64,000 nucleotides of DNA from Trypanosoma brucei (lineage: Eukaryota). Positions within the stretch are counted from its first letter, which is position 1. Every line of letters begins with the position of its first letter. This document shows, piece after piece, positions 5,216 through 44,363 of this stretch. The notes under the pieces were generated by a model. The model searched no databases. It was not told the origin of the DNA and was given only the letters and a program-made list of their open reading frames with translations. Location of the stretch: NCBI GenBank assembly GCA_000002445.1, contig CH464491.1:2240001-2304000 (forward strand), written 5' to 3'. A program made the position numbers and the translations under genes.

Positions 5216-5258
5216 ACTTCTTCTTCACTTTTCTTTCTTTCTCTCTCTCTTTGTCATT
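5216..5258 (+). promoter_or_regulatory. polypyrimidine tract, candidate trans-splice acceptor region for RAD51
   Basis: An uninterrupted C/T run (cttcttcttcacttttctttctttctctctctctttgtc) lies ~180 nt upstream of the RAD51 ATG and is followed by AG dinucleotides. Confidence 0.4.
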
Positions 5259-5436
5259 GAGCTGCTCTGCTGCTGTCTCATTGTTTCCTTTGTACCTTCA
5301 CGTTCAGCATTAGAAGTTCGGTGAGTCGTGGGGAATTCTTTGAGAGGTGGTGCGCGCTTTAAAGAGAAACCAGCAACAACACCGAAAGGGCTTCTCCAGA
5401 TTCCCCGTGAAGGTTTCTTAACGCGTATACCAGGGG

Positions 5437-6558: not shown

Positions 6559-7637
6559 TGCCCCATCTTTTTTTTCCTCGTCATTTGTAGAAAAACATTC
6601 ACTCCGAAAGCGGAGAAGTGCATGCTGCAGTTCGAAGGCTTCGGTTTTGTCGTGTTTATGGTACACGTTATTCTGTCCTCCTTCCGGGCAGCAGGTCACT
6701 TTTCGATTTGCCTACGACTTCACTCTTTTTTTTTTCTCTTTCCTCCTGTTTAGTGCATCGGTGAGATTGACACCCGTATACCCGTTTCTGTGATTGTATG
6801 TCTGTCTGTGTGTGCGCATTTGAGTGTTGGCGGACCCTCCGTCTGTTCCGCTCTTTAGTGTTTCCCTGGCGGATCATCCCCGCTGTCGCTCCCCTTCCCT
6901 TCCCGATTTTTTTTAAAAAGAAAAACTTTCTCTTCTGATACTTGATCTGCCTTGCTCGGTTACAAACTGTTGCGCTGTACCGCGAGTTGGGAAGGTGGGG
7001 ATTAACGAATGTGGCGGCGAGGATTGCGAAGGCAATTGTAGGTAACTTAGAAAATGAAGCAAACAAACAACAAGAACGAGAATCACAGAAGTTTTTTTTT
7101 TGGTTGAGGGAGTTGCACAACGACGAAGCACAAAGAAAGACAGCAAAAAAAAAAAGGAAACAAACGAAAATAACAGTTCGAAGTGCTCTAGAAAAAGTGT
7201 GGGGGACAAAGGTGTGCGCTGTAGTTTGTTTCGGTTTCTTCCGTGCATTATACTCTTGCGACGGTGAAGTCAAGATTTATGGAAATGGGAGCGAAAATGG
7301 GTAGTAGTCTAATTCCATTGTTTTATATGATATTCCACTTCCATGTCCTGTGCGAACCGTCTTTCACTTTTGTATTGACGCTCAGCCTAAATCATAAACA
7401 CACGGACACACACAAAAAAAATACACATGTTTTTTTTTGTTACACTGACGTTTGCTTTGTTTTGTAGTAGTATTTTGTTGTCATCCTTGCTACTTTTTCT
7501 TTTTTCACTTTTCCCCATCTTTCCTATTTAAAAAAAAAATTTCACAACGCTCTCACCTCACTGACACACTAACTACGAACTTGAAGCTTAGGAGGCAACA
7601 CACACTTTAAAAGAACACCAGCAGCTCTACAAAAAAG

Positions 7638-7973
7638 ATGACGACGAAGCGCCGCAATCATGGTCGTGCCAAGCCTCCCTGCAGCCGTGGTCGTGTCCGG
7701 CCTGTGCACTGCTTTAACTGCAGCCGTCTCGTTCCCAAGGACAAATCTGTTGGCCGCTTTGTGGTCCGCCGTATGCTCGATCAGGCTTCCGCCCGTGACG
7801 TGGCTGAGGCATCCCTCATCTACGGTTCTGGTTTCCCTATGCCAAAGCTCTACATGAAGCAGCGCTACTGCATTGCCTGCGCTATTCACAGTCGAACTGT
7901 ACGCGCCCGCCCTGTGGAGGATCGCAAACGTCGCTACACGTCCAAGGTGCCCTTCCGTCCAACTGGCAAGTAA
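7638..7973 (+). CDS. RPS26: 40S ribosomal protein S26 (eS26), 111 aa
   Basis: The start is ATG at 7638. 'MTTKRRNHGRAKPPCSRGRVRPVHCFNCSRLVPKDK...YCIACAIHSRTVRAR' is near-collinear with eukaryotic eS26, including the CxxC...CxxC zinc-ribbon. Confidence 0.93.
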   Translation: MTTKRRNHGRAKPPCSRGRVRPVHCFNCSRLVPKDKSVGRFVVRRMLDQASARDVAEASLIYGSGFPMPKLYMKQRYCIACAIHSRTVRARPVEDRKRRYTSKVPFRPTGK

Positions 7974-8313
7974 TAACTCCACCCGCCACTGCGTGGCTGA
8001 AGGAGTAACCGGGGAGCATATAATAATAGTCGTGCTGGATGTGTGAAGTCGCTGAGCAAATCGCAGTCTGTTTACCTCTTTTGTGTTCTATATCTTAGAC
8101 ATCAGACATGTGATCTTGCATTGTACTAGCGCATTGCCTCCTTGCCGCAAATATGTTTTTATTTTTATTTTATTTGTTTATTTATTTCCTGACACTCCCC
8201 GTGTCTCGATATCTATAAATGTTCCCACGAAGCTAAAGAACAGTGGTGAAAGGAAAAAAGGACCGGAAGCACTGGAGCTTCGTGGTTTGGTCCTATTTCA
8301 TCACCCCCCCCCC

Positions 8314-8332
8314 AAAAAAAAATTAGAACACC
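8314..8332 (+). repeat. C10A9 homopolymer junction
   Basis: tcaccccccccccaaaaaaaaattag seen directly. Analogous C11A9 lies at 20564-20583 and C8A9 at 46889-46905. Confidence 0.85.
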
Positions 8333-8371
8333 ACTGTATGTCTTTGTAGAGCTGGGCGAAAAGTCACTACT

Positions 8372-8430
8372 ATTTACCTTTTCTCTCCTTTTGTTCTTAC
8401 TTTCATTTGCTTTGTTCCGTTTCCTCTCCG
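8372..8430 (+). promoter_or_regulatory. polypyrimidine tract, candidate trans-splice acceptor region for RAD50
   Basis: A C/T-rich run (ctatttaccttttctctccttttgttcttactttcatttgctttgttccgtttcctctcc) lies ~270 nt upstream of the RAD50 ATG. Confidence 0.4.
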
Positions 8431-8697
8431 AATGCTGCGCTCTTGTTGTGGCCGGATCCACTTTCATTGAATTTTGGAAGCGTGTTTCGGGAGAGGAAAG
8501 TAGGGGATAGGTGAACAAGTACGTATATAAAACACACGTAAGTTAACTTATATATACCTGCTTGTGTTTGTTTATTGTTGTACACTGGTTGTTCACTAAC
8601 GTTCGAACCTTGACGACGGTGTGTATCTGCATCACTTCAAAGGCTAACGACACGAACGAAAACACATACGTGTAGCGGCTGAACATACACCCTTTCA

Positions 8698-11600
8698 ATG
8701 ACGAGTATCGAACAGATTGAAATCAGCGGAGTGCGCAGCTTCGACCCTAATCCAAATAACCGTCAGCGCATTGTCTTTAAGAAGCCACTCACTGTTATTC
8801 TCGGAAAGAATGGTGCTGGAAAGACAACTATTATTGAGGCACTTCTGAACGCCTGCACGGGTCAAATGCCTCCTGGTGGTGGAACAGAAAAGAGTTCGTT
8901 TGTGTACGACCCAAAGGTTGTGGGTGAGAATGATGTGAAGGCTCAGATCCGCCTTCTTTTCACGGGAAGGGGTGGGAAAGTTATGCAGGTTATTCGCTCG
9001 TTTCAGGCTACACGGACGCGGAATAAAACCACCTTCGCGACGCTCGATAACATTGTCGCCTTCCAAGATTCTGCGACGGGGAAAATCATATCCAGCACAT
9101 ATCGCGCCAATGACGTGGACCGCGCGATTCCAGACATGCTTGGTGTATCTCCTGCGGTATTGGAGCACGTCATATTCTGCCACCAGGAGGATGGAAATTG
9201 GCCCCTCTCCCCCCCGAAGGAAGTGAAGAAGATATTTGACGATATATTTGCAGCCACGCGTTATGTTCTTGCCCTCGACCGTTTGCGGGAGAATAATAAG
9301 GAACTGCGCCGCCAGCAGAAGGAACATGAGGCGAGCTTAATGTCATTGTCAGAGCACAGAGAGCAGGCACGCCAAATATCGGCGGATATTACAGTTAAGG
9401 AGGAGACTGTCGCAGGTATTAAAGCAAAAACGGATGCGCTGGCACCCCAATTGCAGGAACTGCAAGCCATCGCTACTGCTCTAGATAACGTGGAGCATCG
9501 TGCTGAAGGTTTATCTCGAGAAGCAGCTGTCATTGAAGGTCGAATAGGCGAAAAGAGGGAGTCTCTCAGCCGGTTAAACGTTTCCCCGCCCGGATACTCA
9601 CTGGGGGAGTTACTGCAACGCAGGCAGAACTTCGGTGAAAAGTTGAGGGAACTGGAATCCACTGTTTCGACAAAGAAGGAGCTTATGGAACGGGCGGTGG
9701 CGGAGCTTCGCCGTTGTGAAGAAAGTGTTGTGAGCCTCCGCTCCGGTATTGAGTTTCGTGAGAAACAGGAACAGCAGCACAAGAGGGAATGCGAGGAACT
9801 CAAGGTAATAATGAGTGATTTGTCTATGAAATTTGTCATCGATGGGGAGATCAATGAGCATTGTTTGACAAAGATAACGGAATATGTTAATGAGGAACTT
9901 CACAACGAAGAGCAAAAGCGAAGTGGAGAGCTAAATTCCATAGATGCAGGAATTCGTGCTGTAGAGGATAGAAGGTCCACAACACTTCGTGCGATGGACA
10001 CCGAAGGTAAGGAGAAGGAAATGAAAGAGGAGCAGCTCCGTCATCTGATGAAGAGATGTGGCGACGCAAAGGAGGCACTCGGTAAGTTGGCTCCGTACGT
10101 TACCCCTACACGTCTGAAGAATGTGCAGGACACGATTACCGAGTTGGAAAAACGTGTTGAGGCAATGGAGCTGCTGCAAAAGGGTGACGCGAGGTACAGG
10201 CAGCGACAGGACATCTTACAGAGTGTTGAGGCACAAAATAAGGTTGTCGCTCAGTTGCGACAAGAACTGTCCCGACACAAGCAGCGCTCAGGTCGTGAGG
10301 CAGAGATGAATCTCCTTCGTACCCAGATTGCGGAAAAGGAGGAAATTATCAACAACCGACTGCAGGAAGAGCTAATTGCAGGACTCAATGACCTTGGCTG
10401 CAATACAGGCGGATCGCAGACCCTCACAACTGTAACGATGCAAATCGACAAACTGAGGCGCAAGATGGCAGACACGCTTTATAGCGTCGAAGCAGAGGCC
10501 AATGACCTTGATCGCCAGTTGATTGCACTGAAACAGAACCGGTCGCAGTTGGAGGGGAAAATTGTCAGCGAGAATATAGAGCTACAGAGGAAGAGGGTTC
10601 AATGTATCAGCAAACTTGGAAATGATGATGCCCTAACTAACTTTGAGGCGCTTCTAGTGGAGGCGCGTGACAGATATCACAAATTGAATGAGAAGCTTAG
10701 TGGATCTAAAGCATTGGCCGCATGTCACGCCCACTTTGTGGAGCAGGCTAAGGTTGAGGACAAGTGCCCACTCTGTGGTCGTGCTTTTGGCAGTGAGAAT
10801 GAGTTGAATGACTTCTTGGCATCCTTTAAGGTGGGTCAACAAACCTCTGGGAAGGATAGCATAAAAGAGGGTGACGTTGAGAAGGCTCTGCAACGCGTGC
10901 GCGGACTCGAGCAGTTGGAGTCTGATGTAATGGACGTGAGGCGGCTTGCCGATAATGCACCACAACTGGAGGAGTCACTTAAATCTACGATTAAGCAGAT
11001 TCGAGACAAAGAAATTCTCCTGGAGGATGTGCACAACAAACGAGACAAAGTGAAGGACGAAATGCAGCGTGCGCAAAAACTGGTTCAGGCTGCGATGGAG
11101 GTGAATGCCATGACATCTGAGAAGCAGGCACTACTGCAGCAGCTTAACAGACGAGAGGCAGCATGTGCAGAGGCGAGCACATCTTCCGCTAACATTGGGG
11201 GTGCAGGGGAGCCTTGCTGTGCGGGTGAATTAGCGTCACTTTCGTACGAGGAGCTGTCGGACAAGTACGAGTCCGCAAATGCTGAACTTCACCGGTTGAA
11301 TGTGCTTCTAAGTGAAATGCAGAGAGGGGAAGAGGGAGGCTCTGCCCAAGCACTTGTCAAGGAGCTTACAATGAAGCGGTCGGAACTCTGTGAATTGAAA
11401 ATGAAGCTTACTCGTCAAGCCGAGGTTGAGGCAACGATTGCTCAATATGCGGAGCAGGAGGAAGGTTACGTCAGCCGTATTGCTGAAATAGACGACCAAC
11501 GGGAAAAACTGGTGGCCCAACTTGAATCTTACAATAAGGAGTTGGAAGCACTGCATGCAAAGCGGAAGGAGCTTGAGTTGGCGTCTCAACAGGGATACAT

Positions 11601-12747
11601 TGGTCAGCTAAAAAGAACACTAGGACTTCTTTCGGCTGTGCTACCGAGGCTGCGGGATTACATCACTTCAAGGGTTGGCGAAGAGCTCTCAAGAGACAGA
11701 GAGAGCTTGTGTGTGAATGAAAAACGACGAGACACGCAAGCTGAAGAGGTCAAGCTTCTCCGCTTATCAATTGACGACACATTGCGTATAATCAATGAAG
11801 AGCAGCGGCTCAGAGTGGAAGTGGACAAGTACATTGAGTATCTCGAGAAAAAGGGTTCCATAGAGGAAGATGAAAAACGTTTGAGTGATGTTAGGTGCAC
11901 CCTTTCTGAGTTGAAAGTAAATGCTGTGCCCGCTGCAGAAGCCGTCCTCGGAAAGGATGTTGTGGAGAGGGAAAGTGTTGGCCGAATTCGTGAGCTTATT
12001 CGCGGGAAAATCAGTGCGTTGGAGTGCCTTCGTGCTCAGCAAGATGGTGTCGCCGAGGCGATGCGACAGGACATTGAGAGTCTCAAAGGTCAGCTTACTC
12101 GCGATAAGTACAAAGATATTGAAAAGCGCTACCGCACGACCTTCCTGAAGGTCCAGACTACTGAAATTGCGGTTTCGGATGTGGAAAAATATTATCGAGC
12201 GCTGGAAAAGGCAGTGCAGACCTACCACCAAGAGAAGATTGCGCAGATCAATCAAATCTTGGCTGACCTTTGGCGACACACCTACAAGGGAAGCGATATT
12301 GACACCATTGAACTCCGTTCCGAGGATGATGTCACGTCAACTACAGCGAGGCGGAGTTACAGCTATCGTGTGGTGATGAAACGGGGGAACAGTGAAATGG
12401 ACATGCGGGGCCGTTGCAGTGCGGGTCAAAAGGTACTTGCCTCTGTTCTCATCCGACTTGCGCTAAGTGAAGCCTTTTGTTGTGACTGCGGAATTCTTGC
12501 ATTAGATGAGCCGACAACGAATCTTGACGAAGATAACGCGCGTTCTCTTGCGGAGTCGCTACGCATGCTTATTGACAGTCATCGAGCAGTGAAACATTTT
12601 CAGCTTATTGTCATTACTCACGATGAGCACTTCGTCCGCGCGCTAGGAGGCCAGGCACTGGATACTTTTTATTACATTCATAAGGATAGAGAGGGCGCCT
12701 TTTCTGTGATTGAGGAGCGCACTTTCGATCAGTTGTTCGCGAGTTGA
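8698..12747 (+). CDS. RAD50: RAD50 DNA double-strand-break repair ATPase (SMC-like), 1349 aa
   Basis: The start is ATG at 8698. N-terminal Walker A is 'LGKNGAGKTTIIEAL'. A very long coiled coil carries a central zinc hook 'CPLCGRAF' (nt ~10765-10788). C-terminal signature is 'CSAGQKVLASVLIRLAL', Walker B is 'ILALDEPTTNLD', and the D-loop/H-loop is 'IVITHDEHF'. Confidence 0.93.
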   Translation: MTSIEQIEISGVRSFDPNPNNRQRIVFKKPLTVILGKNGAGKTTIIEALLNACTGQMPPGGGTEKSSFVYDPKVVGENDVKAQIRLLFTGRGGKVMQVIRSFQATRTRNKTTFATLDNIVAFQDSATGKIISSTYRANDVDRAIPDMLGVSPAVLEHVIFCHQEDGNWPLSPPKEVKKIFDDIFAATRYVLALDRLRENNKELRRQQKEHEASLMSLSEHREQARQISADITVKEETVAGIKAKTDALAPQLQELQAIATALDNVEHRAEGLSREAAVIEGRIGEKRESLSRLNVSPPGYSLGELLQRRQNFGEKLRELESTVSTKKELMERAVAELRRCEESVVSLRSGIEFREKQEQQHKRECEELKVIMSDLSMKFVIDGEINEHCLTKITEYVNEELHNEEQKRSGELNSIDAGIRAVEDRRSTTLRAMDTEGKEKEMKEEQLRHLMKRCGDAKEALGKLAPYVTPTRLKNVQDTITELEKRVEAMELLQKGDARYRQRQDILQSVEAQNKVVAQLRQELSRHKQRSGREAEMNLLRTQIAEKEEIINNRLQEELIAGLNDLGCNTGGSQTLTTVTMQIDKLRRKMADTLYSVEAEANDLDRQLIALKQNRSQLEGKIVSENIELQRKRVQCISKLGNDDALTNFEALLVEARDRYHKLNEKLSGSKALAACHAHFVEQAKVEDKCPLCGRAFGSENELNDFLASFKVGQQTSGKDSIKEGDVEKALQRVRGLEQLESDVMDVRRLADNAPQLEESLKSTIKQIRDKEILLEDVHNKRDKVKDEMQRAQKLVQAAMEVNAMTSEKQALLQQLNRREAACAEASTSSANIGGAGEPCCAGELASLSYEELSDKYESANAELHRLNVLLSEMQRGEEGGSAQALVKELTMKRSELCELKMKLTRQAEVEATIAQYAEQEEGYVSRIAEIDDQREKLVAQLESYNKELEALHAKRKELELASQQGYIGQLKRTLGLLSAVLPRLRDYITSRVGEELSRDRESLCVNEKRRDTQAEEVKLLRLSIDDTLRIINEEQRLRVEVDKYIEYLEKKGSIEEDEKRLSDVRCTLSELKVNAVPAAEAVLGKDVVERESVGRIRELIRGKISALECLRAQQDGVAEAMRQDIESLKGQLTRDKYKDIEKRYRTTFLKVQTTEIAVSDVEKYYRALEKAVQTYHQEKIAQINQILADLWRHTYKGSDIDTIELRSEDDVTSTTARRSYSYRVVMKRGNSEMDMRGRCSAGQKVLASVLIRLALSEAFCCDCGILALDEPTTNLDEDNARSLAESLRMLIDSHRAVKHFQLIVITHDEHFVRALGGQALDTFYYIHKDREGAFSVIEERTFDQLFAS

Positions 12748-18113: not shown

Positions 18114-20315
18114 ATGTCTGATGTTCCGGAGCTTCCGTCATTTGAGGCGGCGGACGTTGACGACCGTCCGCCACCTCCATCGATCAGTGACTACCCCATA
18201 GGCTGTGAGGTGGGTCTCGTGGATATCAACATTGCCAAGGTGGCACAGACGGAGGAGTTGTGGGAGCCTTTCATGGACCACTTCTTTACTCAAGGAAGAC
18301 GGACGGTGCGGGTGGTGAGACACCAGGGCGATTATACCTTTGTGGTAAGCGAGGAAGATTCCATGATTGTGGGTTGCACATTGTACCGTGCCTGTCTTTG
18401 TGAACCTAAGGTGCGCATCGGTAAGTACGGTGGCACCAATGCCATAGTTTTAGGGTGTGACAGCACACACTCCATTGAGAGACGCACTTCCGGTTTGTCT
18501 GTCGTGACGGATCGTGAAGGTGATGCGGTGTGGGGCCCTGACTCGCCATTTCCTGATGGCGCAGCTGCCGATGGGGCCCCGGTGCCTGAATTTACGCCCC
18601 CAAGAGAGTCTGAGATTCCTTCGGACTGCCTCGAACGTGGGGGCCCATGTGTGCAGGAGCAACCAACGAAAGGGCAGGCCACACTGGAGGAGCGACGGTA
18701 CAATTCTGCGTTAATGAAGGCCTACGATGCTAGGATGAGGAAGGATTATAGTGAAGCCGTGCGGTACTGCACCAAGGCGTTGAGGCATTGTCCCAGTGGC
18801 TGTGTGAGAGCATTAGCTAACCGTTCAGCTATGTACCTGAGCATGCGTGACCCGAAAGCGGCCCTTGCGGATGCTCTTAAGGTGATTGAGCTGATGCCCA
18901 GCAACTATGTAGGCTACGTTCGCGCGGGTAATGCCATGCGTGGATTGAAGCGGAATGGAGAGGCACGGAACTTTTACCAGGAGGCACTAAAGTTGGACCC
19001 AAACAACGAAACAATTAAGTATCTAGAAAAAGATAACGCGGTGCTGATGGTGTACGCCTCGAGGCGGCGCAGAGGGCAGCATGCCTACGTTAGTGTGGAT
19101 CGATCGACCCTTAATATCATTCTCGTATCGGGGAAGGATCAGTGTGCAGGTGACGTAGCCTGGGAAGAAATAACGTCTATTGTAGCTCCACTCGGTGAGA
19201 CTGCGGATCTTTGCGATGCATCAGCGTGTATTTGCCCCCCACACGTGTGTGGAAACTGTTACCGACCACTTACCAAAGTCGAGGATTTCTTCAACTCTCT
19301 TGTAGGTGTGGAGCTTAGTCTCTTGAATGAGCTGTACAGCGGATGCAATGCTGTAAGTTGTACTTACAGCTGTGGCACCGTGTTCTGCTCAGAGAATTGT
19401 CGTACGAAGGGTTGGGCTTCTCACCACTGGATAGAATGCCCTGTTATCGGCAAGTGGCGTGAAGCATTTAAGAATATACCTGCTGTTTACAGATCGTTCT
19501 ACGCTGATTGTGCGTCCCACATAAATATGGTGACACCTGCAAAGGAGCAGGCAAACGGCTCGACAGATGGCCGTGATGGTTCCAGCAATTATGACGGCCC
19601 GTTTGCTTCACTTGCCTTATCTGTGGAGGGTAACCTAACTCAGGCACTGATTGCGTGCTGTCGACTTGCTTGCCGTATGTTTGTGGATGCCGTTAGTCGT
19701 GGACAGGCACTGAAGGATGTGGTCCTGCCATACAATTGGTTGTTGCCAGAAGATTGTAGCTACGTTCGTGTGACTGACGAAGGGGCAGCCAATAACGTGT
19801 TCACCCTAATCGCTAACAAGATGCTTAGACCCGTTTACGTATCACTTGAGCGGTGCTTTGATAACGAAGAGGGGGAATATCTTTCATTTGAGCTCTTCCT
19901 TCGCTTTTTTGAGCGAGCCCGCTTCAACAGCATCAAGTTACGCACATCATTGTGGCCCACCGTGCAGAAGGAAGCAAGGTGCTACAAGGAGCGACCCGCA
20001 GGTTTCGGTACCACAGAAATCGTAGGAGGACGAAATGTAGGTGTCTCTCTGGACCGGCAGTTGGAACACATTCAGTCGGCCCAAGCGACCTCTGTTGCGG
20101 GTTATTACGAGTACCTTGCGCTTTTTACCGCCTTTCCGGCGGCTTTCTCTCCACAACCGACCCGAAGTAAGCGAAACTTGGAGTCGTCGCGTCACAACTT
20201 GAATTTGAGGTTGGATATCGAGTCCTCTGCGATGATTCGAGCGGATGCAATTGAATATATTGCCGAAGGCGAGCAAATGGCTGTGGATCGATTGACTACA
20301 ACATATTTTGTGTAG
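18114..20315 (+). CDS. TPR-repeat plus MYND-type zinc-finger protein, 733 aa
   Basis: The start is ATG at 18114. Three consecutive TPR-like units span aa ~215-320 (EAVRYCTKALRHCP...ALANRSAMYLSMRDPKAALADALKVIELMP...YVRAGNAMRGLKRNGEARNFYQEALKLDPNN). The second half of a MYND finger 'FCSENCRTKGWASHHWIEC' (C-x3-C-x7-H-x4-C) is preceded by CGNC...C-x4-C-x3-C. Confidence 0.6.
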   Translation: MSDVPELPSFEAADVDDRPPPPSISDYPIGCEVGLVDINIAKVAQTEELWEPFMDHFFTQGRRTVRVVRHQGDYTFVVSEEDSMIVGCTLYRACLCEPKVRIGKYGGTNAIVLGCDSTHSIERRTSGLSVVTDREGDAVWGPDSPFPDGAAADGAPVPEFTPPRESEIPSDCLERGGPCVQEQPTKGQATLEERRYNSALMKAYDARMRKDYSEAVRYCTKALRHCPSGCVRALANRSAMYLSMRDPKAALADALKVIELMPSNYVGYVRAGNAMRGLKRNGEARNFYQEALKLDPNNETIKYLEKDNAVLMVYASRRRRGQHAYVSVDRSTLNIILVSGKDQCAGDVAWEEITSIVAPLGETADLCDASACICPPHVCGNCYRPLTKVEDFFNSLVGVELSLLNELYSGCNAVSCTYSCGTVFCSENCRTKGWASHHWIECPVIGKWREAFKNIPAVYRSFYADCASHINMVTPAKEQANGSTDGRDGSSNYDGPFASLALSVEGNLTQALIACCRLACRMFVDAVSRGQALKDVVLPYNWLLPEDCSYVRVTDEGAANNVFTLIANKMLRPVYVSLERCFDNEEGEYLSFELFLRFFERARFNSIKLRTSLWPTVQKEARCYKERPAGFGTTEIVGGRNVGVSLDRQLEHIQSAQATSVAGYYEYLALFTAFPAAFSPQPTRSKRNLESSRHNLNLRLDIESSAMIRADAIEYIAEGEQMAVDRLTTTYFV

Positions 20316-21844
20316 TTGGTGAAAACAAACTGCGTTTAACTCCAGTGGGTGCCGGCACGTGCTTCGTGGGAACTTTGTTTTATGATGTGTTAAAGTTGCG
20401 GGGCGGGTTAGGAGTCATGAATGCGTGGGACGAAAAAAAAGCAACAAAGAAACTCGCGAGCACAAACAAGCATGCACAAACGCAATCAAAGACCAACAAC
20501 AAAGCGGAAGTGGCAGTGCAGAAGGCGGTGTGTGATGGCAGTTTCCCACCACCACCGCCACCACCCCCCCCCCCAAAAAAAAAGAAAAGGGAGACATTTG
20601 ATGTTTTATTGTTTTGTTTTGTTTTTTCGACCCAAGTAGCGACAACCCTAGTCATTAGCGGCACGAGTTGGAAGAGGAAAGTTAAGGTAATGCTGTCTAC
20701 TCCCGCTTCCCCGTCTGCTTTGTTATGCTTTTTGGAGAATAAAACTGTGACTGGGAAAACAAGAGGGATGGGAATACTGTTTTAGCTGGTATTGGTGCCA
20801 CTTGTAAACTTTTCTTTTCCCTTACTGGGTAGGTTCAATCGGACGGAAAATGTTTAACGTTAAGATGATCGTTTATTTGTTAACATATGCCAACGATAAA
20901 GTAAAGCGTATTATATGTTTGCGGTTGGTTGCGGTAGGAAAAGGGCTGATGCCTCGAATGGCGTGTCGTTCCTCAACGTGGAGTGTTTGGGGAGGAGGGG
21001 AAGATTCAGATGGAACGCTCCGGGCCAGTTGTTTTCTTCCGTGTTTTTCCTTTAGTTGGACATCCTTTTTCTACACCCCCATAAGTGCGAAAGGTTTTCT
21101 TTTTTGTGGTTGGCTACCCTCAACCACTTTTGTTCACATTGATTATGTTTTCTTACGCTTGGCTGTTGGATTACCCCCCTCGTTCATACCTAGGTTGGCT
21201 ACAGTGGAGGCCTTTATTTTTGTTTAATTTCTGTGAAACCTTCCCTTCCCTTACTTTCCTCCCCTGAATGTATTCTGGAAATGTTAGTGTTTTAGGACAT
21301 GGCGCCATGTTCACCTTGCGGGACCACTGGAGAAGAGGAGTGAAGGGTATGTGAAGGAAAAGGGAGTAAACAAAAAAAAGCGTGATAACGTTGATGGAAC
21401 CCAATTTCGTTTATTGTCCTCTCTTTTTGTCTTTTTTTTTTTGATCCGTGGGATATCGTCCGCTTGCCTTTTGCTCTGCCAATGGGTGACGCGGGTCTTT
21501 TTTTTTTTTTTGTGTGTGTGTGTGTGCGTGGATACTCTTTGTTTCCTCATGTAGCATGTGAATTTCCGGAGGTGAAAGGTGAGGACGGCACGTTGACTTG
21601 GATTCTATGTGATTGGGGATGATATTCCTCATTGTATTTGAGGTAGCGAGCAAATTGTACTGCGAGCACATATATATTTATGCGGCTTTCCAACTGAGGC
21701 TGATAGACCGGTTCCCACCTTTCTTTGCATAGCAATGTCTTTCTTTTCTCCATTCTCTTCTAAAGCCTTCTCACCTTTCTTTTCCGGGGACGACGCGCGA
21801 AACGGGGGCCGTTATTGAACAACAAGGTTCTCGAGTGTAAAGTT

Positions 21845-22399
21845 ATGAGCCACCCAGATGGTTCCGGCAAAGCGGGATCATCCATTACGCATGCTATGGC
21901 TTTGCACATGATAAGCAAGGCCTCTTTGCTTGCAGGGCACTCAACTCAACAGCAAAACAATGGAAGTGGGTCAGTAGGCAACTTCTCCGATACGCTATCA
22001 AACATTAGTGGGTTTGCTGCGAGCGCTGCCGACAATTCAGTGAGAAATGGAGCTACGGTGGCCGCCTCTGTCGGTAATCATGAGCGCCACGGCCCCGTGT
22101 GGATCGCTCTATTGATATGGCTAAGCTTCATCTTGGTGGTTATTTTTATCATCGCGCGCTTCGTGCTTTGGTGCCTGAGCTCGCGCCGAGCCGCCCGTGC
22201 GGGCTACAACGAAATTTGGGATGGGGTAGGTTACAGTGGCAATCGATCTGCCATGGCAGCGACGGATGGCGGAGCTCCTTCAAGCACGAGAACCAGCGTA
22301 GTAGGAAACGCTTCTCGGCAGCAGTTTCGTCATTCGCGGCAGAAGGCTGCGAGACGCTCGTACGGGACAGAAAACCCTTCAGCCGAGGTGGAGGTGTGA
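21845..22399 (+). CDS. hypothetical single-pass membrane protein, 184 aa
   Basis: The track ORF starts at TTG 21815, and the first ATG is 21845 (MSHPDGSG). One strongly hydrophobic segment is present (VWIALLIWLSFILVVIFIIARFVLWCL). The C-terminal tail is Arg-rich. Confidence 0.4.
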   Translation: MSHPDGSGKAGSSITHAMALHMISKASLLAGHSTQQQNNGSGSVGNFSDTLSNISGFAASAADNSVRNGATVAASVGNHERHGPVWIALLIWLSFILVVIFIIARFVLWCLSSRRAARAGYNEIWDGVGYSGNRSAMAATDGGAPSSTRTSVVGNASRQQFRHSRQKAARRSYGTENPSAEVEV

Positions 22400-22819
22400 G
22401 AGAGTCATAGAATCTTGTTCCGCATCCTGTGCATATGAGGAGGGAAAGAGTCAGTCGGTGATTCCTCCCATTTGGGGGACAATGTACGGGGGAAGGAGGG
22501 AAAAGGAGTGTGGGAGAAGGCAGAAGCTGGTACTTTTTACACAACTGAAAGTCCTCTGCGGTTTCGCGCACAACGTGTGGATTATTGTTATTGTAATTAT
22601 GTTGATGAATCGGTTTGAGCCTCTTTGCAAGTTTCGCCCTCTGAGTTTCTCTGTAGGGTCTCTTTCTTCCTCAACACTGCATCTTCCTTGTGAAATTAAA
22701 GGTTGAGAGTTTTATAATAGAGAGTATATTACGTCTATCGCAAGCGTTCGTAAAAGCAGATACACGCGCAGAAACGAACGGAGGAACCTCATTAGGTACG
22801 CAACTCTTCCGCCAGAGTT

Positions 22820-24088
22820 ATGAACACCATTTTCCGCCTTTTTCTGTTATTCGTGCAACTTTATGGCATCTCAGATCCCGCTACTGGGTCTAGCAGCTAC
22901 ACCACGGCAGGAATGGGGCGGGCGGAGGTACCAGAGCCCGAGTGGAGTTACTCCAACCTTGCGGCATGGCCACCGCTATGCCACACAGGGATGCACCAAA
23001 GCCCCATCTCCTTCAAGAATCTTACGCCGTCAGAGCTGCGGTGCACCAAGCCTCCGCAGCCATTGGAATTTTCTGAAGGATGTACCTTCAAGGCCGAAAG
23101 CACTTCCCTAAAAATCGACAACGGCGTTAACACGATCCGTGTTACGTTCCTTCCACTTGGTAAAACGGCTGGTGATCGAACCAACGTTTGTACTCTCCGC
23201 GATCCGTCCGGTGCTACTGGTGCCCAGAAGTATCAGCTTACTGCCATGCACTTTCACGCGCCACCAGAACATCTTTTCCCCCACGCGGCGCCCGATGCGG
23301 AGCTACACATTGTCTTCAAAGCAGAGGATGAACACAGTGTGGAACCCGCTGTTGTCGTCGCAGTGCAACTCGCTGCATCCGACGCAGCAAACACATCTGC
23401 GACGCGGGCACTTAACCACATTATGATCGACGGCCCGTTACCGCCGCGGCAGGCTTCCACCACATGCACCCTTGAAAGAAATTTGACTGTTGCCGAGATG
23501 TTGCCGCAGCGTCAGAGTTACGTAACATACAGTGGCTCCCTAACAACTCCACCATGCACGGAAGGGGTTCGCTTTGTAATAATGACAACCCCGCAGCTCA
23601 TATCGAAGGCGGCTTTCAACAAGTTGTCGCAGGTACTCCGCCAGACGTGGCCAGAGAATCGGCTGGGGAACCGGCGGCCGACTCAACCTCTGAACGGGCG
23701 GGAAGTTTGTCGGTACGTGGATGGCAGGCATCCGAAGACAAGCAATGGGCAAGGTGTATGGGGAGACTACCTTGACACCATTCCTGCCACTGGTGATTCA
23801 GTGAGTGAAGGTGGTAATCCATCTGGAAGTGAGGAGGGGGTAAAAGGCAACCTGAGTGGAGCTGATGTTGGTGCAAATCAAACGGAAGAAGAGAAAGATG
23901 GAAAGCAGCTGTGGCCTTACGTGCTTAAACCCCATGAAGCCATCCTTTTCACGGCTGCTGCAGTTATTCTCGTTGTTGCGGCACTCATTTTGTACTGGTG
24001 GTCAAACAATGCAAACGAAAAAGTTGATGCCAACGAGGCGGAATGGTTGGGCACCGCAGCTGAGGTGTACGGGACATCCTCCCTCTAA
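22820..24088 (+). CDS. alpha-carbonic anhydrase-like protein with an N-terminal signal peptide and a C-terminal transmembrane anchor, 422 aa
   Basis: The start is ATG at 22820. A signal-like N-terminus is present (MNTIFRLFLLFVQLYGISDP). Alpha-CA hallmarks are 'WSYSN...QSPISF', the zinc triad 'HFHAPPEH...AELHIVF' (His94, His96 and His119 equivalents), and 'SYVTYSGSLTTPPCTEGVRFVIM' (cf. CA2 '[22 protein letters not shown]'). A C-terminal TM helix is present (AILFTAAAVILVVAALILYWW). Confidence 0.8.
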   Translation: MNTIFRLFLLFVQLYGISDPATGSSSYTTAGMGRAEVPEPEWSYSNLAAWPPLCHTGMHQSPISFKNLTPSELRCTKPPQPLEFSEGCTFKAESTSLKIDNGVNTIRVTFLPLGKTAGDRTNVCTLRDPSGATGAQKYQLTAMHFHAPPEHLFPHAAPDAELHIVFKAEDEHSVEPAVVVAVQLAASDAANTSATRALNHIMIDGPLPPRQASTTCTLERNLTVAEMLPQRQSYVTYSGSLTTPPCTEGVRFVIMTTPQLISKAAFNKLSQVLRQTWPENRLGNRRPTQPLNGREVCRYVDGRHPKTSNGQGVWGDYLDTIPATGDSVSEGGNPSGSEEGVKGNLSGADVGANQTEEEKDGKQLWPYVLKPHEAILFTAAAVILVVAALILYWWSNNANEKVDANEAEWLGTAAEVYGTSSL

Positions 24089-24371
24089 ATTGTTCCTCTG
24101 TGCGTTTGCTTTTGTGCCGAATGTGACGACTGAGTGAGTCAGGAAGTTATGTGTGTATGTGCAGAGGGCGTTATAACTCTCTTCACACCAATGTCGGGTG
24201 GAGTGGGTTGTGTGATATCTTGCTTCTCTTCTTTGTTGTCTTTCTCCTTAATTGTGCGGAGAGGCGCGCGAAGAAATCGTTCCCCTGACATCTGTATCCC
24301 TACATCCTACACCATAAATACTGTCAAACGTGTATGGTGCCCAAACGCACTAACATTGTATTTAACGTCCC

Positions 24372-26789
24372 ATGTTCAGAAGGGCGTATCACACGAACCT
24401 TGGGAATGCCCACTTGTATCATCCTCTTCACCAACCTAAGTTTCACCGCAAGGATACAAATTTAAGGGTCCAGAGAAAACAGGGTCACACGGCCCATATG
24501 ACGTCACCTCACCTCCTTACGTTCAGCCAAGAAGCTGTGTGCGTTGCCGAGGAGTTTGGTGTGGCTTTCTATGCTCCGAAGAACTTGAAGAAATTTCAGG
24601 TTGAACGCTTCAACGGGGTGAGGATTGCAGGGATATACGCTACAAAGGCCTCTGACGGTGGGTCTCACCTCCATGTAGTGGATGTTGAGGCCAACTGGTT
24701 CCTTGTCTCCCTTTCTCGCGTTGAGGTAGTCTCCTCATCATCCATTGAACTTTCTGAAGAAAATTCTGTCAAGCAAAGTGAGTCCTCGCGCCACTCCGAG
24801 GAATGCGCGCGTCGACTACCGAACACTGAAGGGATTTTGGAGGCTCACTTTCATGAGGCCGGTGGCGTACTTCACTGCGTGGTTCTCACACGATGGGGTG
24901 CATATGAAACGGTGCTAACTAATACAAGCAGAATAGTGGCGAGGAACATTATATCTTTTCCGTTTGAGATGCGGAATTGTTTTATGTCCGTAGGGAGAAC
25001 AAGTGGTCTTGTTGTTGTTTGCCAGCGGAGTGAGAAGTGGCTGCGATACTCCCTTTTCGAGCAGCGTGATAACGAGCGTATCAGGATGTTTGATTCTCCA
25101 GTTAATGTTCAAAGCTTTGCTGTGAACCCCATTTCCAATTCAGTGGTTTTGGGCGGTACACGGGGTGAGATGGTACTTTACCCTTCTATTACTGAGAAGA
25201 ATTATTTTTCAGATCATTGGCATCATACGCCGTTAACGGCGCTCAGTTTTTCCATAGACGGGAAAGCATTTTACTCAGGGGCCCGTGAAGGGATGATATT
25301 GGTGTGGAATACCTCGTCATATACCTACAAGAAGGTAAGCTGTGGTTTGGGTTGTATCAACAGCATCGCAGTGCCAACGGGAAATGGTTCAAGAGTATTA
25401 CTGAGTTGCGCCGAATCCACCATTGCCGTGCTTGACCTCTTGCAAATGCAGGTAGAGAAGTTCGTTGAGGGCGTACAGTGGTCTACCGATGAGTCGTGTA
25501 GCGGGCTCGTGGTGAGTCAGTGGATGGGCCAGCCGGCAGTGATTCTTACGGGGTTGCCTAACGTGGTGCGTGTTTGTGATCCCTTCACTCAGCAGGCGAT
25601 CTACTCTCTTCACATATCTTCCCAGATGGAGACTATACCGAGCCCCCCGCGTCATGGCATTCAATACGTGGGGTTGCTAAACAACAACCGCACAATAGTA
25701 ACCTATGAGGAATTTAGTGGTGTTTCGTTGCCGTCGTTATTGCGCTTCTGGGCATACAGTTCTGATTCTAAACGGCATGAAGAATCGATGACAATTTGTT
25801 CACCCCATCGCAGTCAAGTACTGGCACTGACGACGGATGACACCCAGCAGCGAGTCTTTACCCTCAGTGGCGAGGCGATGAAATGCTGGGTGGAATGCAA
25901 AGAAGATCTTAACGATGCGCACGCAATCGGGAAGAAGACTTGGGGCAACCAATCGAGCTGCGTAACTCCGTCGCGCCTTGTGCAGGATTTAATTATTTCC
26001 CACGACGGCTCCTTATGTTTCATCTCCGATGATAATGTTCACGTCTATAACGTCAAAGCCTTACATCCGGGACAACCATGGCAGCGGGTTCTCACCTTAA
26101 CGCAACATTTTTCACTTTCTCCGCTGAAGAATCTGACGCTACTGCACGAGTGCCGTGCACTTGTGGCCACTGACGCCGAACGCGTGTACTTTTGGTCGTT
26201 AGCCAAGCCTCGCCGGCAGGCAACGATATGGAAGGACAAAGGAGTCGGAGGGAAGGCGGCTGGCATCACAGCCATGTGCGGGTTTTCAGTGAATTCTGTT
26301 CTTGTGGCAACAGAAAGATGCAACCTCTGGGAGCTGAGCGCTGCAGACGTGAACGAAATGGGAAAGGTTGTTGGTCAAGCAAATAGCGCCACGGAGCACC
26401 GTATTACATTCATGAAACCACTGTCCCTTCTTAAGCAGCCAGACCGAATTGCAGTAGTGGACAGCGTTTCTGGTTTTCGAGTCATGCACGTCTCACTGGA
26501 AGGGAAGGGAGGAGTTAATGTGCAGCAATTTGAGCGTACCACTGCGAGAGACGAATCTAATGAGACACTCTCGTCGCTAAAACAGTACTTTCAGGAGGCC
26601 CCTGTGAGAAGCAACAACTTTGACGGAGCGGACGAAAATGCCTCCACCATCCTGGACCGCGCATCTCAAGTGGCAGAGGCACAGAAATGGCTGGTGGGGG
26701 TCCTGGCGGACTCCGCCTACACCGCCCCACCTATGAGTGCCTTGCTTTCTTCATATTTGCAGAGACGTGCGGGTGTAGCAACGTTTTGA
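24372..26789 (+). CDS. WD40-repeat (beta-propeller) protein, hypothetical, 805 aa
   Basis: The start is ATG at 24372, with an alternative in-frame ATG at 24498 (MTSPHLL). Several WD-like units are present, e.g. 'LTALSFSIDGKAFYSGAREGMILVWNTSS' and 'VVLGGTRGEMVLYPS'. The upstream spacer is only ~280 bp. Confidence 0.65.
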   Translation: MFRRAYHTNLGNAHLYHPLHQPKFHRKDTNLRVQRKQGHTAHMTSPHLLTFSQEAVCVAEEFGVAFYAPKNLKKFQVERFNGVRIAGIYATKASDGGSHLHVVDVEANWFLVSLSRVEVVSSSSIELSEENSVKQSESSRHSEECARRLPNTEGILEAHFHEAGGVLHCVVLTRWGAYETVLTNTSRIVARNIISFPFEMRNCFMSVGRTSGLVVVCQRSEKWLRYSLFEQRDNERIRMFDSPVNVQSFAVNPISNSVVLGGTRGEMVLYPSITEKNYFSDHWHHTPLTALSFSIDGKAFYSGAREGMILVWNTSSYTYKKVSCGLGCINSIAVPTGNGSRVLLSCAESTIAVLDLLQMQVEKFVEGVQWSTDESCSGLVVSQWMGQPAVILTGLPNVVRVCDPFTQQAIYSLHISSQMETIPSPPRHGIQYVGLLNNNRTIVTYEEFSGVSLPSLLRFWAYSSDSKRHEESMTICSPHRSQVLALTTDDTQQRVFTLSGEAMKCWVECKEDLNDAHAIGKKTWGNQSSCVTPSRLVQDLIISHDGSLCFISDDNVHVYNVKALHPGQPWQRVLTLTQHFSLSPLKNLTLLHECRALVATDAERVYFWSLAKPRRQATIWKDKGVGGKAAGITAMCGFSVNSVLVATERCNLWELSAADVNEMGKVVGQANSATEHRITFMKPLSLLKQPDRIAVVDSVSGFRVMHVSLEGKGGVNVQQFERTTARDESNETLSSLKQYFQEAPVRSNNFDGADENASTILDRASQVAEAQKWLVGVLADSAYTAPPMSALLSSYLQRRAGVATF

Positions 26790-28738: not shown

Positions 28739-29084
28739 GTTAATACTTGGTGTTTTGATGCCTTCCCCATTGTGTATGTTTTGTTTGAGTTTCAGGTGAA
28801 GTCCGACTGCACATAACGTCTCCCATACCCCTGTTTAATTATGCCACTGCATAGCAAGAGTGAACCCTGTTCTTTTGCCCAGTTTGCTCTGTGAACGCAT
28901 GCATTTTTTGTCCATGTTTTGTTGCAACAATCGCCCCACATGTCTTTGACACGCTCTCATTTGTGTAACCGCAGAGTTTACGGCACTAGCTTTGCAGTGC
29001 GGTGACACACGCATAGATTTATTTTGTTATATCTTTTACATATATTTCCCCCCGTCGGAGTATACCTCGCATTTGATCAACACG

Positions 29085-31772
29085 ATGGATGAAACACCGA
29101 ATGCTGTAAAGCAGCTATATACGGATGTGGAGTACACCATAGGGTCCAACCCAGAAATGGAGAAGCAGGTGAAGCACGGCTGTGTGGTTATCGGACGGCT
29201 GCGTGTGTACTCAAGCTATAACTCGGGCCTTGCATTTGTGCGTAGTGGTGCTTTCCCAGCGGATGTTGTTGTGAAGGGATACGGAAGTATTAATCGTTTT
29301 TTGCATAATGATGTGGTTGCGGTGCAACTTCTTCCCATGGAGCAATGGGAAGACGTGGTTTCGGGTGAGTTGGAACCGGATGGCGACGATAAGGATGAGT
29401 TTCGCACGATGAGACCGGATTCAGAGAGACTCCCCGATGGGCGGCGCATCACACGGTGGATACGAGACACCACGATGAATAACAGAAAAAACCGAGAGAT
29501 GTGGCTGGCGGAGATGATGTCCGCCCCAACCCAGCACAACTGGCATGGCAAGAAGCCGTCGGGAAGTGTGATAGCCGTCCTCGAGCGTAAGCACCCACTG
29601 CTTTTTGTGGCCCGCTTGGCCGACGACGCGCTCTCCTCTCAGGAGGTTATACAGGACAGACGCTTCTACCGTTTCAAAGTATTTGATCAATTACTTCCTC
29701 ATATCGCCGTTTTTGGCCGTGATATTCCTTTTAGCCTGCGTGAGAGTATCAGGGAACGGTTTTACTTGTTACGTCTGGAAACGACAACTGGTGGGGACAT
29801 AGTGTGGGTGGAATCTCGTTTTCCCACTGCAAGGATAATATCCACGTTTGGTAGTGTGCACTCGTTGCGTGCAAACACTTTCGCGATTTGCTCTGCGCAC
29901 CACATTGTCACGGACGACTTCTCAGAAGAGGCGTGCAACTGTATACCCGACCGGCTAATAATTCCGAACTCAGAGGAAATGAAACGAACCGGTCGCCGTG
30001 ATCTGCGCAGAGAAGAGTTCGTGTGTAGTATCGACCCTGCCACGGCCCGTGATCTGGATGACGCCCTTAGCATAACCTTATTGCCAGGAGGGTACCGTGT
30101 TGGGGTTCATATCGCCGATGTATCACATTTCGTTTCCCCGGGGTCGGCACTTGATGAGGAGGGTCGTGCGCGGGCGACGAGTGTGTACCTTGTGGACCGA
30201 GTTTATCACATGCTTCCACGAAAACTGAGCGAGGAGTACTGCAGTTTGCACCCAGGGTCCGATAAACTTGCTTTCTCTGCCATCTTTCAGTTGGACCTCA
30301 ACGGCAAGCTGAAAGGGGAATGGTTTGGAAAGAGCGTTATCCGCAATCGTTGCCGCCTCTCATATGATGATGCTCAACGAATTATCGATGGTAACCTAAC
30401 TACCCTTGATGCATTAGATTACGGTGGCGTAACGGATCGCCGAGAGCTTTCGCAGCTGAAGGAACGTGTTGCGACGTCGGTGAAACACCTTTTCGATCTG
30501 GCATCCAAACTCCGCGCTGCAAGTTTTGAACGGGGTCGTCTAGCGTTTTCCACTCCTGAGATCGGTTTTCACTTTGAGGACATATCGAATCCCACGCACC
30601 CAATTGGGTTCAATGTCCATAGGCAGATAGAGGCAAATTGGCTGGTAGAGGAGTTTATGCTGCTTGCCAACTTACGAGTCGCCCAAAAGATTGTGCAATA
30701 CCTTCCTGACCAAGCAATACTGCGTGTGCACCCACCACCGAAGAGGGTTCTGTTTGAACAGCTGAAGCTGTCTCTTGCAAGAGTGAACATTGAGCTGAAA
30801 GGACGATCCAACAAGTCGCTCGAGCAACTTCTTAATAGCGTGAGGGATCATCCGTTGCGGGACGAAATTTCTATCATGGTGAAGAACACTCTGTCTCTAG
30901 CGAAGTATTGTACAAACGGTGAAAATTTTACTAACAAAGTTCCCCTCGGGCACTACGCTCTAGGGTTAGAGTGGTATACGCACTTCACCTCACCCATTCG
31001 CCGCTACGCTGATATCATCGTCCACCGGCAGCTACTATGCGCTTTGGAGATCGAATCAATTGTAAAGGGGAAGCACCGCACCGGCAAGACATGTGCGGGT
31101 GCTGTTGGAATGGAGGTGGAATGTCTTGACTCAGCGGAGTTTTTTACTTCCACTTATGAAGTCATGAATATTGCAGATGAATGCAATGAGAATAAGAGGG
31201 CTGCGGACAGTGTGAGCGAAGCTTCACTAAAACTATTCTTCTGTCACTATCTCAAGTCCTTGCGGTCTCTGTGGGTTTCGAGCAACAAAGAAGATCCCTT
31301 TATTCCACGCGTGGATGCCGTCGTCATAAGCGTGGCTCCTGAAAAAAAGGTGTTGATGCTATACGCAAGAGTGGTAGGGATCAGTGTTGAGATTAGTTTA
31401 AAAAGTAAGACACAAAAATTTGTTGCGGAAAGCGGTAATAATGAGAATAGGGATGAGTCCAACAAGGAGGAAACTGCGTCGCTTCACAGTGAGATAAGAA
31501 GAAAAAGAGGGAGCGCCACTGGGGGAAATCACAGGGGTGGGGAGAGACAAAAGAGCCCTCCACGTGCGCAAGAGGCGAAGATAACCATCAACTGGGGGTT
31601 ACACCCCCAAACTAATGAAAAGGTTGAAGAGGAGATTAAAGAACTCATGATGGTTTCCGCCGTCCTAACAATAAAACGAAACGTGAAAGGCTATGAGGAA
31701 CCGGATATGATTATGGACCCACCGTGGTTGCGGGACGAAAAACGGATGGCAATACCCACAAGTCTCGTTTGA
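29085..31772 (+). CDS. RNB-domain 3'-5' exoribonuclease (RNase II/R/DIS3 family; DIS3L2-like architecture without a PIN domain), 895 aa
   Basis: The track ORF begins at TTG 28992, and the first ATG is 29085 (MDETPNAV). RNB motifs are 'CSIDPATARDLDDALS' (motif I), 'VYLVDRVYHMLPRKL', and 'HYALGLEWYTHFTSPIRRYADIIVHRQL' (motif IV). A cold-shock-like N-terminus is present (GCVVIGRLRVYSSYNSGLAFVRSG...VVAVQLLP). The C-terminal tail is RG-rich. Confidence 0.85.
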   Translation: MDETPNAVKQLYTDVEYTIGSNPEMEKQVKHGCVVIGRLRVYSSYNSGLAFVRSGAFPADVVVKGYGSINRFLHNDVVAVQLLPMEQWEDVVSGELEPDGDDKDEFRTMRPDSERLPDGRRITRWIRDTTMNNRKNREMWLAEMMSAPTQHNWHGKKPSGSVIAVLERKHPLLFVARLADDALSSQEVIQDRRFYRFKVFDQLLPHIAVFGRDIPFSLRESIRERFYLLRLETTTGGDIVWVESRFPTARIISTFGSVHSLRANTFAICSAHHIVTDDFSEEACNCIPDRLIIPNSEEMKRTGRRDLRREEFVCSIDPATARDLDDALSITLLPGGYRVGVHIADVSHFVSPGSALDEEGRARATSVYLVDRVYHMLPRKLSEEYCSLHPGSDKLAFSAIFQLDLNGKLKGEWFGKSVIRNRCRLSYDDAQRIIDGNLTTLDALDYGGVTDRRELSQLKERVATSVKHLFDLASKLRAASFERGRLAFSTPEIGFHFEDISNPTHPIGFNVHRQIEANWLVEEFMLLANLRVAQKIVQYLPDQAILRVHPPPKRVLFEQLKLSLARVNIELKGRSNKSLEQLLNSVRDHPLRDEISIMVKNTLSLAKYCTNGENFTNKVPLGHYALGLEWYTHFTSPIRRYADIIVHRQLLCALEIESIVKGKHRTGKTCAGAVGMEVECLDSAEFFTSTYEVMNIADECNENKRAADSVSEASLKLFFCHYLKSLRSLWVSSNKEDPFIPRVDAVVISVAPEKKVLMLYARVVGISVEISLKSKTQKFVAESGNNENRDESNKEETASLHSEIRRKRGSATGGNHRGGERQKSPPRAQEAKITINWGLHPQTNEKVEEEIKELMMVSAVLTIKRNVKGYEEPDMIMDPPWLRDEKRMAIPTSLV

Positions 31773-42370: not shown

Positions 42371-42405
42371 TGTATGTGTGTGTATGTGTGTGTGTGTGTG
42401 TGTGT
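42371..42405. repeat. imperfect (TG)n microsatellite
   Basis: tgtatgtgtgtgtatgtgtgtgtgtgtgtgtgtg seen directly. Confidence 0.85.

Positions 42406-44358: not shown

Positions 44359-44363
<5 letters not shown>

Follow-up and report, generated by a model that had tools for sequence, protein, structure and literature searches.

The window analysed here, i.e. the whole of a 64,000-nucleotide stretch of Trypanosoma brucei DNA (contig CH464491.1, positions 2,240,001 to 2,304,000), carries a complete gene that encodes a carbonic anhydrase (CA) of the alpha class, whose product is very likely a type I membrane glycoprotein that would perform catalysis on the extracytoplasmic side of the membrane and thereby play a role in pH and bicarbonate handling. 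The coding sequence, delimited by an open reading frame (ORF) scan, Pfam and database identity, runs from 22820 to 24088 on the forward strand and consists of 422 codons followed by a stop, its ATG being the earliest possible start in the frame. The gene is real and already annotated: the encoded protein of 422 residues is 100% identical, end to end, to that of T. brucei brucei TREU927 (XP_828900.1 / EAN79788.1 / UniProt Q384J3), and an identical T. equiperdum entry has also been deposited. Existing database names are "carbonic anhydrase-like protein" and, for Q384J3, "carbonic anhydrase". The variants of T. b. gambiense and other members of the brucei group are 99% identical, with all catalytic positions unchanged. 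The membrane-anchored alpha-CA reported at this place by the first-pass annotation, which was made from the sequence, is therefore correct but already known, the gene being annotated, its T. cruzi orthologue kinetically characterised and its Leishmania counterpart both localised and genetically studied. As for the T. brucei protein itself, a search of the literature with its name and accessions retrieved no study of its activity, location or essentiality, the matches consisting of reference-list coincidences and of one second-hand mention of a plasma-membrane proteome.

The membership of the protein in the alpha-CA class is unambiguous. In a profile search, Pfam PF00194 (Carb_anhydrase) was matched with 108.5 bits, compared to a gathering cutoff of 27, and an E-value of 5.7e-31, residues 50-298 covering profile positions 6-252 out of 254, so that the family placement proposed by the first-pass annotation is borne out. 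The catalytic domain corresponding to this envelope is encoded at 22967..23713 (+). In the AlphaFold2 model, built from a 51-sequence alignment, the folded domain extends over residues ~40-305 with a predicted local distance difference test score (pLDDT) of ~90. A phmmer search against the sequences of the Protein Data Bank (PDB) gave 236 chains at E <=0.001, and the 60 listed belong to the alpha-CA family; the best matches among those listed are bacterial (4g7a with an E-value of 5e-21, 4x5s and 5hpj), with chains of CA IX also present. In the same line, the top 50 structures listed by Foldseek against the PDB are all carbonic anhydrases, with E-values of ~1e-19 and target-normalised TM-scores of 0.68-0.80, the highest of these target-normalised scores (0.78-0.80) being those of compact bacterial enzymes. 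NCBIfam returned only a sub-threshold and meaningless match (an anti-sigma factor, E 0.15), as expected for a eukaryotic protein.

These best sequence and structure matches, the periplasmic alpha-CAs of bacteria (SspCA/SazCA of Sulfurihydrogenibium, 4g7a and 4x5s; the Neisseria enzyme, 1kop; the Photobacterium enzyme, 5hpj), resemble the T. brucei protein in their compact domain and in the cysteine pair Cys23-Cys203 (numbering of human CA II, hereafter hCA II). They differ from it in being soluble, devoid of stalk, transmembrane (TM) helix and tail, and in mostly retaining His64 and Gln92, while the trypanosome domain has an insertion at residues ~110-135. The mammalian CA IX, XII and XIV resemble the T. 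brucei protein in another respect, namely the layout predicted for it, with signal peptide, extracellular alpha-CA domain, Cys23-Cys203 disulfide, single TM helix and short cytoplasmic tail, as well as the proposed role as extracellular partners of bicarbonate transport. This likeness is an architectural analogy and not orthology, the identity to mammalian CAs in the structure alignments being 21-26%. The mammalian transmembrane enzymes retain His64.

The active site was examined in two alignments, the first with hCA II (P00918) and bacterial alpha-CAs, and the second with 18 other trypanosomatid homologues, the key columns being read by script. The three zinc ligands His94, His96 and His119 correspond to H144, H146 and H163 of the T. 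brucei protein, Glu106 and His107 to E150 and H151, Glu117 to E161, and the segment Leu198-Thr199-Thr200-Pro201-Pro202 to L241-T242-T243-P244-P245. Besides, Tyr7 is found as Y44, the three valines Val121, Val143 and Val207 as V165, V179 and V250, and the Cys23/Cys203 pair as C54/C246, which is invariant in the trypanosomatid alignment. All these catalytic and pocket residues are retained in the six Trypanosoma species aligned, the one exception being T. grayi, in which Leu takes the place of Val121. On the DNA, and always on the forward strand, the segment A142-M-H144-F-H146, which holds the first two zinc ligands and has an Ala at the Gln92 position, is encoded at 23243..23257; E150-H151, the former being the equivalent of Glu106, the gatekeeper partner of Thr199, at 23267..23272; E161-L-H163, with the third zinc ligand, at 23300..23308; and L241-T242-T243-P244-P245-C246, the substrate-pocket and gatekeeper loop equivalent to Leu198-Cys203, at 23540..23557. 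Cys54 (22979..22981, +), at hCA II position 23, would form a disulfide with Cys246, as is typical of extracellular and periplasmic alpha-CAs. All the motifs quoted by the first-pass annotation are thus present (MHFH with H144 and H146, ELH with H163, PEH with E150 and H151, SLTTPP with L241-P245), and the zinc triad that it described as complete came through careful alignment against hCA II, the bacterial enzymes and the trypanosomatid homologues with no zinc-binding histidine lost.

What had escaped notice is a set of substitutions in the same site. Asn104 (23129..23131, +) stands where hCA II has the proton shuttle His64, an Asn being found there in six of six Trypanosoma species; Gln92 is replaced by Ala142 (Ser in T. 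cruzi), Trp209 by Phe252, Asn62 by Gly and Asn67 by Arg107, this arginine being restricted to T. brucei and T. congolense. His64 is typical of fast isoforms but is not needed for membership in the family, and since the active T. cruzi enzyme TcCA shares its loss, Asn104 excludes neither membership nor activity. Human CA III, a slow enzyme, likewise has an arginine at position 67. The possibility of a catalytically dead CA-related protein (CARP) was considered and rejected, given that all three zinc histidines are present.

A second pair of cysteines, C75 (23042-23044) and C297 (23708-23710), is confined to T. brucei and T. congolense, being absent from the aligned sequences of T. cruzi, T. rangeli, T. 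conorhini, T. grayi and T. theileri. Judging from this distribution, which also separates the T. brucei protein from TcCA, C75 and C297 may form an extra disulfide specific to salivarian trypanosomes.

Given the intact residues, the alpha-CA fold of the model and the kinetics of the syntenic T. cruzi enzyme, the T. brucei protein can be predicted with high confidence to be an active CA, in agreement with the first-pass annotation, which had favoured an active enzyme over a pseudo-enzyme. TcCA (XP_806287.1 / Q4CVY4) was described by Pan et al. 2013, as cited in PMC10304105 and PMC11163988. The latter gives for TcCA a kcat of 1.21e6 s-1, a Km of 8.1 mM and a kcat/Km of 1.49e8 M-1 s-1, comparable to hCA II, together with a KI of 61.6 nM for acetazolamide. 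TcCA lacks His64 (PMC6807911, PMC6779130), one of these two papers specifying a replacement by Asn, and a published tree (PMC11163988) places it among bacterial enzymes. The T. brucei protein shows 43-51% identity to T. cruzi proteins, with a query coverage of 71-100%. More precisely, TcCA falls within the 90%-identity cluster of P0008, an allele of T. cruzi CL Brener with 51% identity over 71% of the T. brucei protein; for a T. cruzi allele of full length, the identity is 43%. The likeness to TcCA concerns gene position, the order being in both cases a tetratricopeptide repeat (TPR) gene, a small ORF with one TM segment, the CA gene and a WDR75-like beta-propeller gene. It also concerns the layout, made of leader, CA domain, stalk, TM helix and tail, and the active site, in which the zinc triad, Glu106, Thr199 and Thr200 are retained and in which Asn for His64 and Phe for Trp209 are common to both. 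Gene order and alignment mark the T. brucei gene as the positional orthologue of a T. cruzi enzyme that is demonstrably fast and that has the same Asn64. To call the alpha-CAs of trypanosomatids sparsely characterised was on the other hand an overstatement, since a considerable body of kinetic and inhibitor work exists on TcCA and the Leishmania LmCA2 has been approached by localisation and genetics.

One further difference between the two species lies in the stalk, which in some T. cruzi alleles carries a His/Met/Cys-rich repeat that T. brucei lacks. In P0008 (522 amino acids), ~4 tandem copies of a 29-residue unit of this type, MHHMNCSMCMRNMENHHKNSSQMEGMSGA, are found, and they are absent from the 420-amino acid T. 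cruzi allele P0006. The presence or absence of this repeat explains why the T. cruzi entries range in length from 408 to 638 amino acids.

As regards architecture, the protein starts with a hydrophobic leader covering residues 1 to ~25 (22820..22894, +). This N-terminus, MNTIFRLFLLFVQLYGI, contains one basic residue (R6), a core LFLLFVQLYGI and a small-residue stretch SDPATGSSS; it is modelled as a helix at residues 2-17 by AlphaFold2 and has an equivalent segment in all orthologues. The leader is a probable cleavable signal peptide according to a heuristic call, which goes in the direction of the signal peptide claimed by the first-pass annotation. The catalytic domain is followed by an acidic, Gly/Ser-rich stalk (residues 307-365; 23738..23914, +), with a pLDDT <50 and with residues 307-362 predicted to be disordered, and then by a single TM helix (residues 374-394, AILFTAAAVILVVAALILYWW; 23939..24001, +), called from hydropathy and modelled as a helix at residues 371-397. 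This is the sole strong hydrophobic segment, with a mean Kyte-Doolittle value of 2.78, and it is followed by a 28-residue hydrophilic tail (residues 395-422; 24002..24085, +), in which E406, L410, Y417 and G418 are conserved. The full alpha-CA domain (residues 50-298) and the C-terminal TM helix (residues 374-394) announced by the first-pass annotation are thereby both recovered. Five N-X-S/T sequons (N67, N191, N221, N344 and N353) are present, all of them N-terminal to the TM helix and two of them, N344 and N353, within the stalk. In the orthologues, an Arg or a Lys comes immediately after the TM segment. Taken together, the leader, the single TM helix, the sequons that precede it, the Cys23/Cys203 pair and the basic residues that follow it in the orthologues point to a type I single-pass membrane protein in which the CA domain would lie on the extracytoplasmic side and the leader would be cleaved. 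Sequence similarity, gene order and the layout leader-CA-stalk-TM-tail place the protein within the trypanosomatid membrane alpha-CA orthogroup, of the TcCA/LmCA2 type.

On this basis, the following mechanism can be proposed. The N-terminal leader would route the protein into the secretory pathway, and the catalytic domain would thereby end up on the extracytoplasmic side, at the cell surface or in the flagellar pocket, in the endocytic lumen, or in both places, tethered by the flexible stalk and the single TM helix, with the conserved tail in the cytosol. Catalysis would follow the standard zinc-hydroxide scheme of the alpha-CAs, with Zn2+ held by H144, H146 and H163 and the zinc-bound hydroxide oriented by the hydrogen-bonded pair T242-E150. 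The hydroxide would attack CO2 in a hydrophobic pocket formed by V165, V179, L241, V250 and F252, yielding bicarbonate. Because the His64 position is Asn104, the rate-limiting export of the proton would not take this route and would rather proceed via buffer, water or another residue, as in TcCA. The protein would then serve to interconvert CO2 and bicarbonate on the outer side of the membrane, in support of pH and bicarbonate homeostasis, by analogy with LmCA2, which works with an SLC26-type bicarbonate transporter, and with the mammalian CA IV, IX, XII and XIV.

Concerning the membrane at which this would take place, PMC5042520 cites the plasma-membrane proteome of T. brucei bloodstream forms as including a carbonic anhydrase-like protein. 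The set of tomato-lectin-bound glycoproteins that this paper assigns to the endocytic pathway of T. cruzi includes the orthologue, and its authors propose an endocytic location for it. A tentative case can therefore be made for the same enzyme, with the same topology, residing mainly in the lumen of endosomes, of the lysosome or of other acidic compartments, where its task would be the buffering or supply of protons and bicarbonate instead of that of a true ecto-enzyme. Besides the tomato-lectin set, the tail is of relevance here, since its E406-x-x-x-L410 resembles the acidic-dileucine signal [DE]xxxL[LI], which is found in full as E-V-E-S-L-L in T. conorhini and T. rangeli. However, the T. 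brucei version, E-A-E-W-L-G, is not a canonical dileucine signal, the Leishmania orthologue stains on non-permeabilised cells, and the plasma-membrane proteome cited above argues for a surface pool. In trypanosomes, surface and endosomal pools are moreover not mutually exclusive. The flagellar-pocket location put forward by the first-pass annotation is speculation, and so is the link that it drew between bicarbonate and adenylate cyclases, for which the Leishmania cyclic AMP (cAMP) result described below offers a loose parallel.

The outward-facing enzyme preferred here has a relative in the Leishmania LmCA2. LmCA2 is described as a plasma-membrane CA that stains on non-permeabilised cells and co-precipitates with LmSLC26A. 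It is said to hydrate exiting CO2 and, when the cells are stressed by acid, to associate with this bicarbonate transporter, the loss of which lowers bicarbonate uptake, intracellular pH and cAMP (bioRxiv 10.1101/2025.07.16.665125). The comparison was made through the L. infantum "carbonic anhydrase-like protein" P0192, a protein of 628 amino acids encoded by a gene of 1887 bp, which is the length reported for LmCA2. This match in length and the synteny of the L. infantum gene make the T. brucei protein very probably the orthologue of LmCA2. The two proteins have the same architecture and share the E, L, Y and G of the tail; they differ in that their identity is ~32% and that the stalk of the Leishmaniinae is Thr-rich and comprises ~250 residues.

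In the active site, the Leishmaniinae depart from Trypanosoma, as seen in the sequences of Porcisia hertigi (P0135) and L. infantum (P0192) and in P0194-P0197, P0201, P0202 and P0206-P0209. Glu106 is replaced by Val (L. infantum), Ala (L. mexicana) or Met (L. tarentolae), Leu198 is changed to Gln, Arg, Glu, Asn or Ser, and Thr200 to His, Ser, Tyr, Val, Arg or Phe. The zinc ligands themselves are affected, with His119 replaced by Gln in L. tarentolae and both His94 by Asn and His119 by Gln in P. hertigi, so that these two, among the sequences examined, would count as CARPs by the loss of at least one zinc histidine. On sequence grounds, one may doubt whether LmCA2-type proteins are catalytically competent.

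By contrast with these eroded active sites, the tail is constant: E406, L410, Y417 and G418 (E-x-x-x-L ... Y-G) are kept in 19 of the 19 trypanosomatid sequences aligned, including those in which the catalytic residues have drifted, and W394 is kept throughout but for a shifted position in alignments of the T. cruzi marinkellei type. Such conservation suggests a cytosolic sorting or partner-binding interaction. A bolder proposal, which we regard as rather improbable, would see in this motif the real invariant of the family, docking either a sorting adaptor or an SLC26-type bicarbonate transporter, with a non-catalytic or scaffolding role that has outlasted the erosion of catalysis in the Leishmaniinae while the Trypanosoma proteins would be fully active.

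Several observations weigh against an active, outward-facing enzyme with a role in pH and bicarbonate homeostasis. At three active-site positions the T. brucei protein differs from TcCA, having Ala instead of Ser at 92, Gly instead of Glu at 62 and Arg instead of Ser at 67; the last of these is the main residual doubt, and the kinetics could be poorer than those of TcCA. The eroded catalytic residues of Leishmania weaken the analogy on which the physiological role is built. As for topology, the positive-inside rule lends its support through the orthologues only, given the net acidic character of the T. brucei tail. In this context, the protein might have the alpha-CA fold and its zinc and nevertheless be slow or mainly non-catalytic, serving for instance as a transporter scaffold. 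Such a view could invoke Asn104, Ala142 and Arg107, by which the site is deprived of the His64 shuttle and of Gln92 and acquires an Arg at 67, and the drift of catalytic residues in the Leishmaniinae while the tail motif stays, which suggests a conserved function independent of catalysis. It is nonetheless unlikely, considering that TcCA, with Asn64 and Ser92, is as fast as hCA II, and that all first-shell and gatekeeper residues are kept in every Trypanosoma sequence, which speaks for catalysis being under selection.

It is very unlikely that the C-terminal hydrophobic segment is a signal for the attachment of glycosylphosphatidylinositol (GPI), the protein being either GPI-anchored like the mammalian CA IV or shed. 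Admittedly, PMC5042520 mentions the T. cruzi orthologue as present in a GPI-anchored protein-enriched fraction, but signals of this kind end at the hydrophobic stretch, whereas this segment is followed by a hydrophilic tail of 28 residues, some of which are conserved across the trypanosomatids aligned, and cleaved peptides are not expected to conserve motifs; the CA IV type of anchoring was rejected on account of this tail. Finally, that the frame is a chance ORF or a pseudogene with no functional product is refuted by conservation and is close to inconceivable, considering the Pfam E-value, the full-length orthologues at syntenic positions across Trypanosoma and Leishmaniinae, and the near-identity of the T. 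brucei subspecies with unchanged catalytic positions.

The value of the present analysis is confirmatory, in that T. brucei carries one intact, probably active and outward-facing alpha-CA. The T. cruzi orthologue has already been pursued as a drug target, and LmCA2, the apparent orthologue, has been linked to acid tolerance. If the ectodomain is exposed to the host plasma, membrane-impermeant sulfonamides could reach it, and herein lies the practical stake of the location.

The gene lies in a neighbourhood that was compared with a T. cruzi locus (L001) and an L. infantum locus (L002). In the window, the CA gene is preceded by a TPR protein gene (18114-20315) and, directly upstream, by a small ORF of 194 amino acids with a single TM segment and no Pfam match (21815-22399, +). 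It is followed by the WDR75-like beta-propeller gene (24372-26789, 805 amino acids), an ORF of 277 amino acids and an RNB exoribonuclease gene (28992-31772). The order in T. cruzi is TPR, a 192-amino acid gene, CA and beta-propeller, and that in L. infantum is small TM ORF, CA (7001-8887), beta-propeller, a 311-amino acid gene and RNB. The succession of small TM ORF, CA and beta-propeller is thus common to the three loci, the upstream TPR gene being shared with T. cruzi and the downstream RNB gene with L. infantum, and this conserved gene order supports orthology.

The small upstream ORF (~190-230 amino acids with one TM segment in the three genomes) is located at 5910-6488 of the T. cruzi locus and at 4700-5383 of the L. 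infantum locus, with 25-33% identity across the three. The TTG start under which it is listed is probably not genuine. Its C-terminal tail, GNASRQQF..SR....RSYGT.., ends with the YGT tripeptide that the CA tail also has. Going by this ..SYGT.. tail, the small membrane protein might, under the bolder proposal made above, act as a partner through the motif of the CA tail.

With respect to the CA transcript, a candidate trans-splice acceptor region was delimited by an upstream intergenic scan at 22632..22700 (+), where a pyrimidine-rich tract, which includes TCTCTTTCTTCCTC at 22659-22672 and TCTTCCTT at 22682-22689, is followed by a first AG at 22700; its acceptor role would follow from the general rule of trans-splicing in trypanosomes. 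On the other side, 283 bp (24089-24371) separate the CA stop from the first ATG of the beta-propeller ORF, and this gap contains a pyrimidine-rich run, CTTGCTTCTCTTCTTTGTTGTCTTTCTCCTT. Either the 3' untranslated region of the CA mRNA is very short, or the downstream gene begins at a later ATG.

At the scale of the 64-kb window, all gene-like ORFs of at least 180 amino acids are on the forward strand and the G+C content is ~0.45-0.52, which fits a trypanosomatid polycistronic unit. Tandem Repeats Finder detected no arrays at a score of at least 80 in the window. A region of ~2.7 kb (41996-44667) is devoid of any ORF of at least 180 amino acids, and the interval 42001-44000 has the lowest G+C content of the window (0.36), with a strong bias of T over A (AT skew -0.29). 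The strongest purine skews of the window are carried by two long ORFs on the forward strand, 8698-12747 (1349 amino acids) and 47182-49869 (895 amino acids), with a GC skew of ~0.17-0.20 and an AT skew of ~0.19-0.22 at both, which suggests compositionally biased or low-complexity coding sequence.

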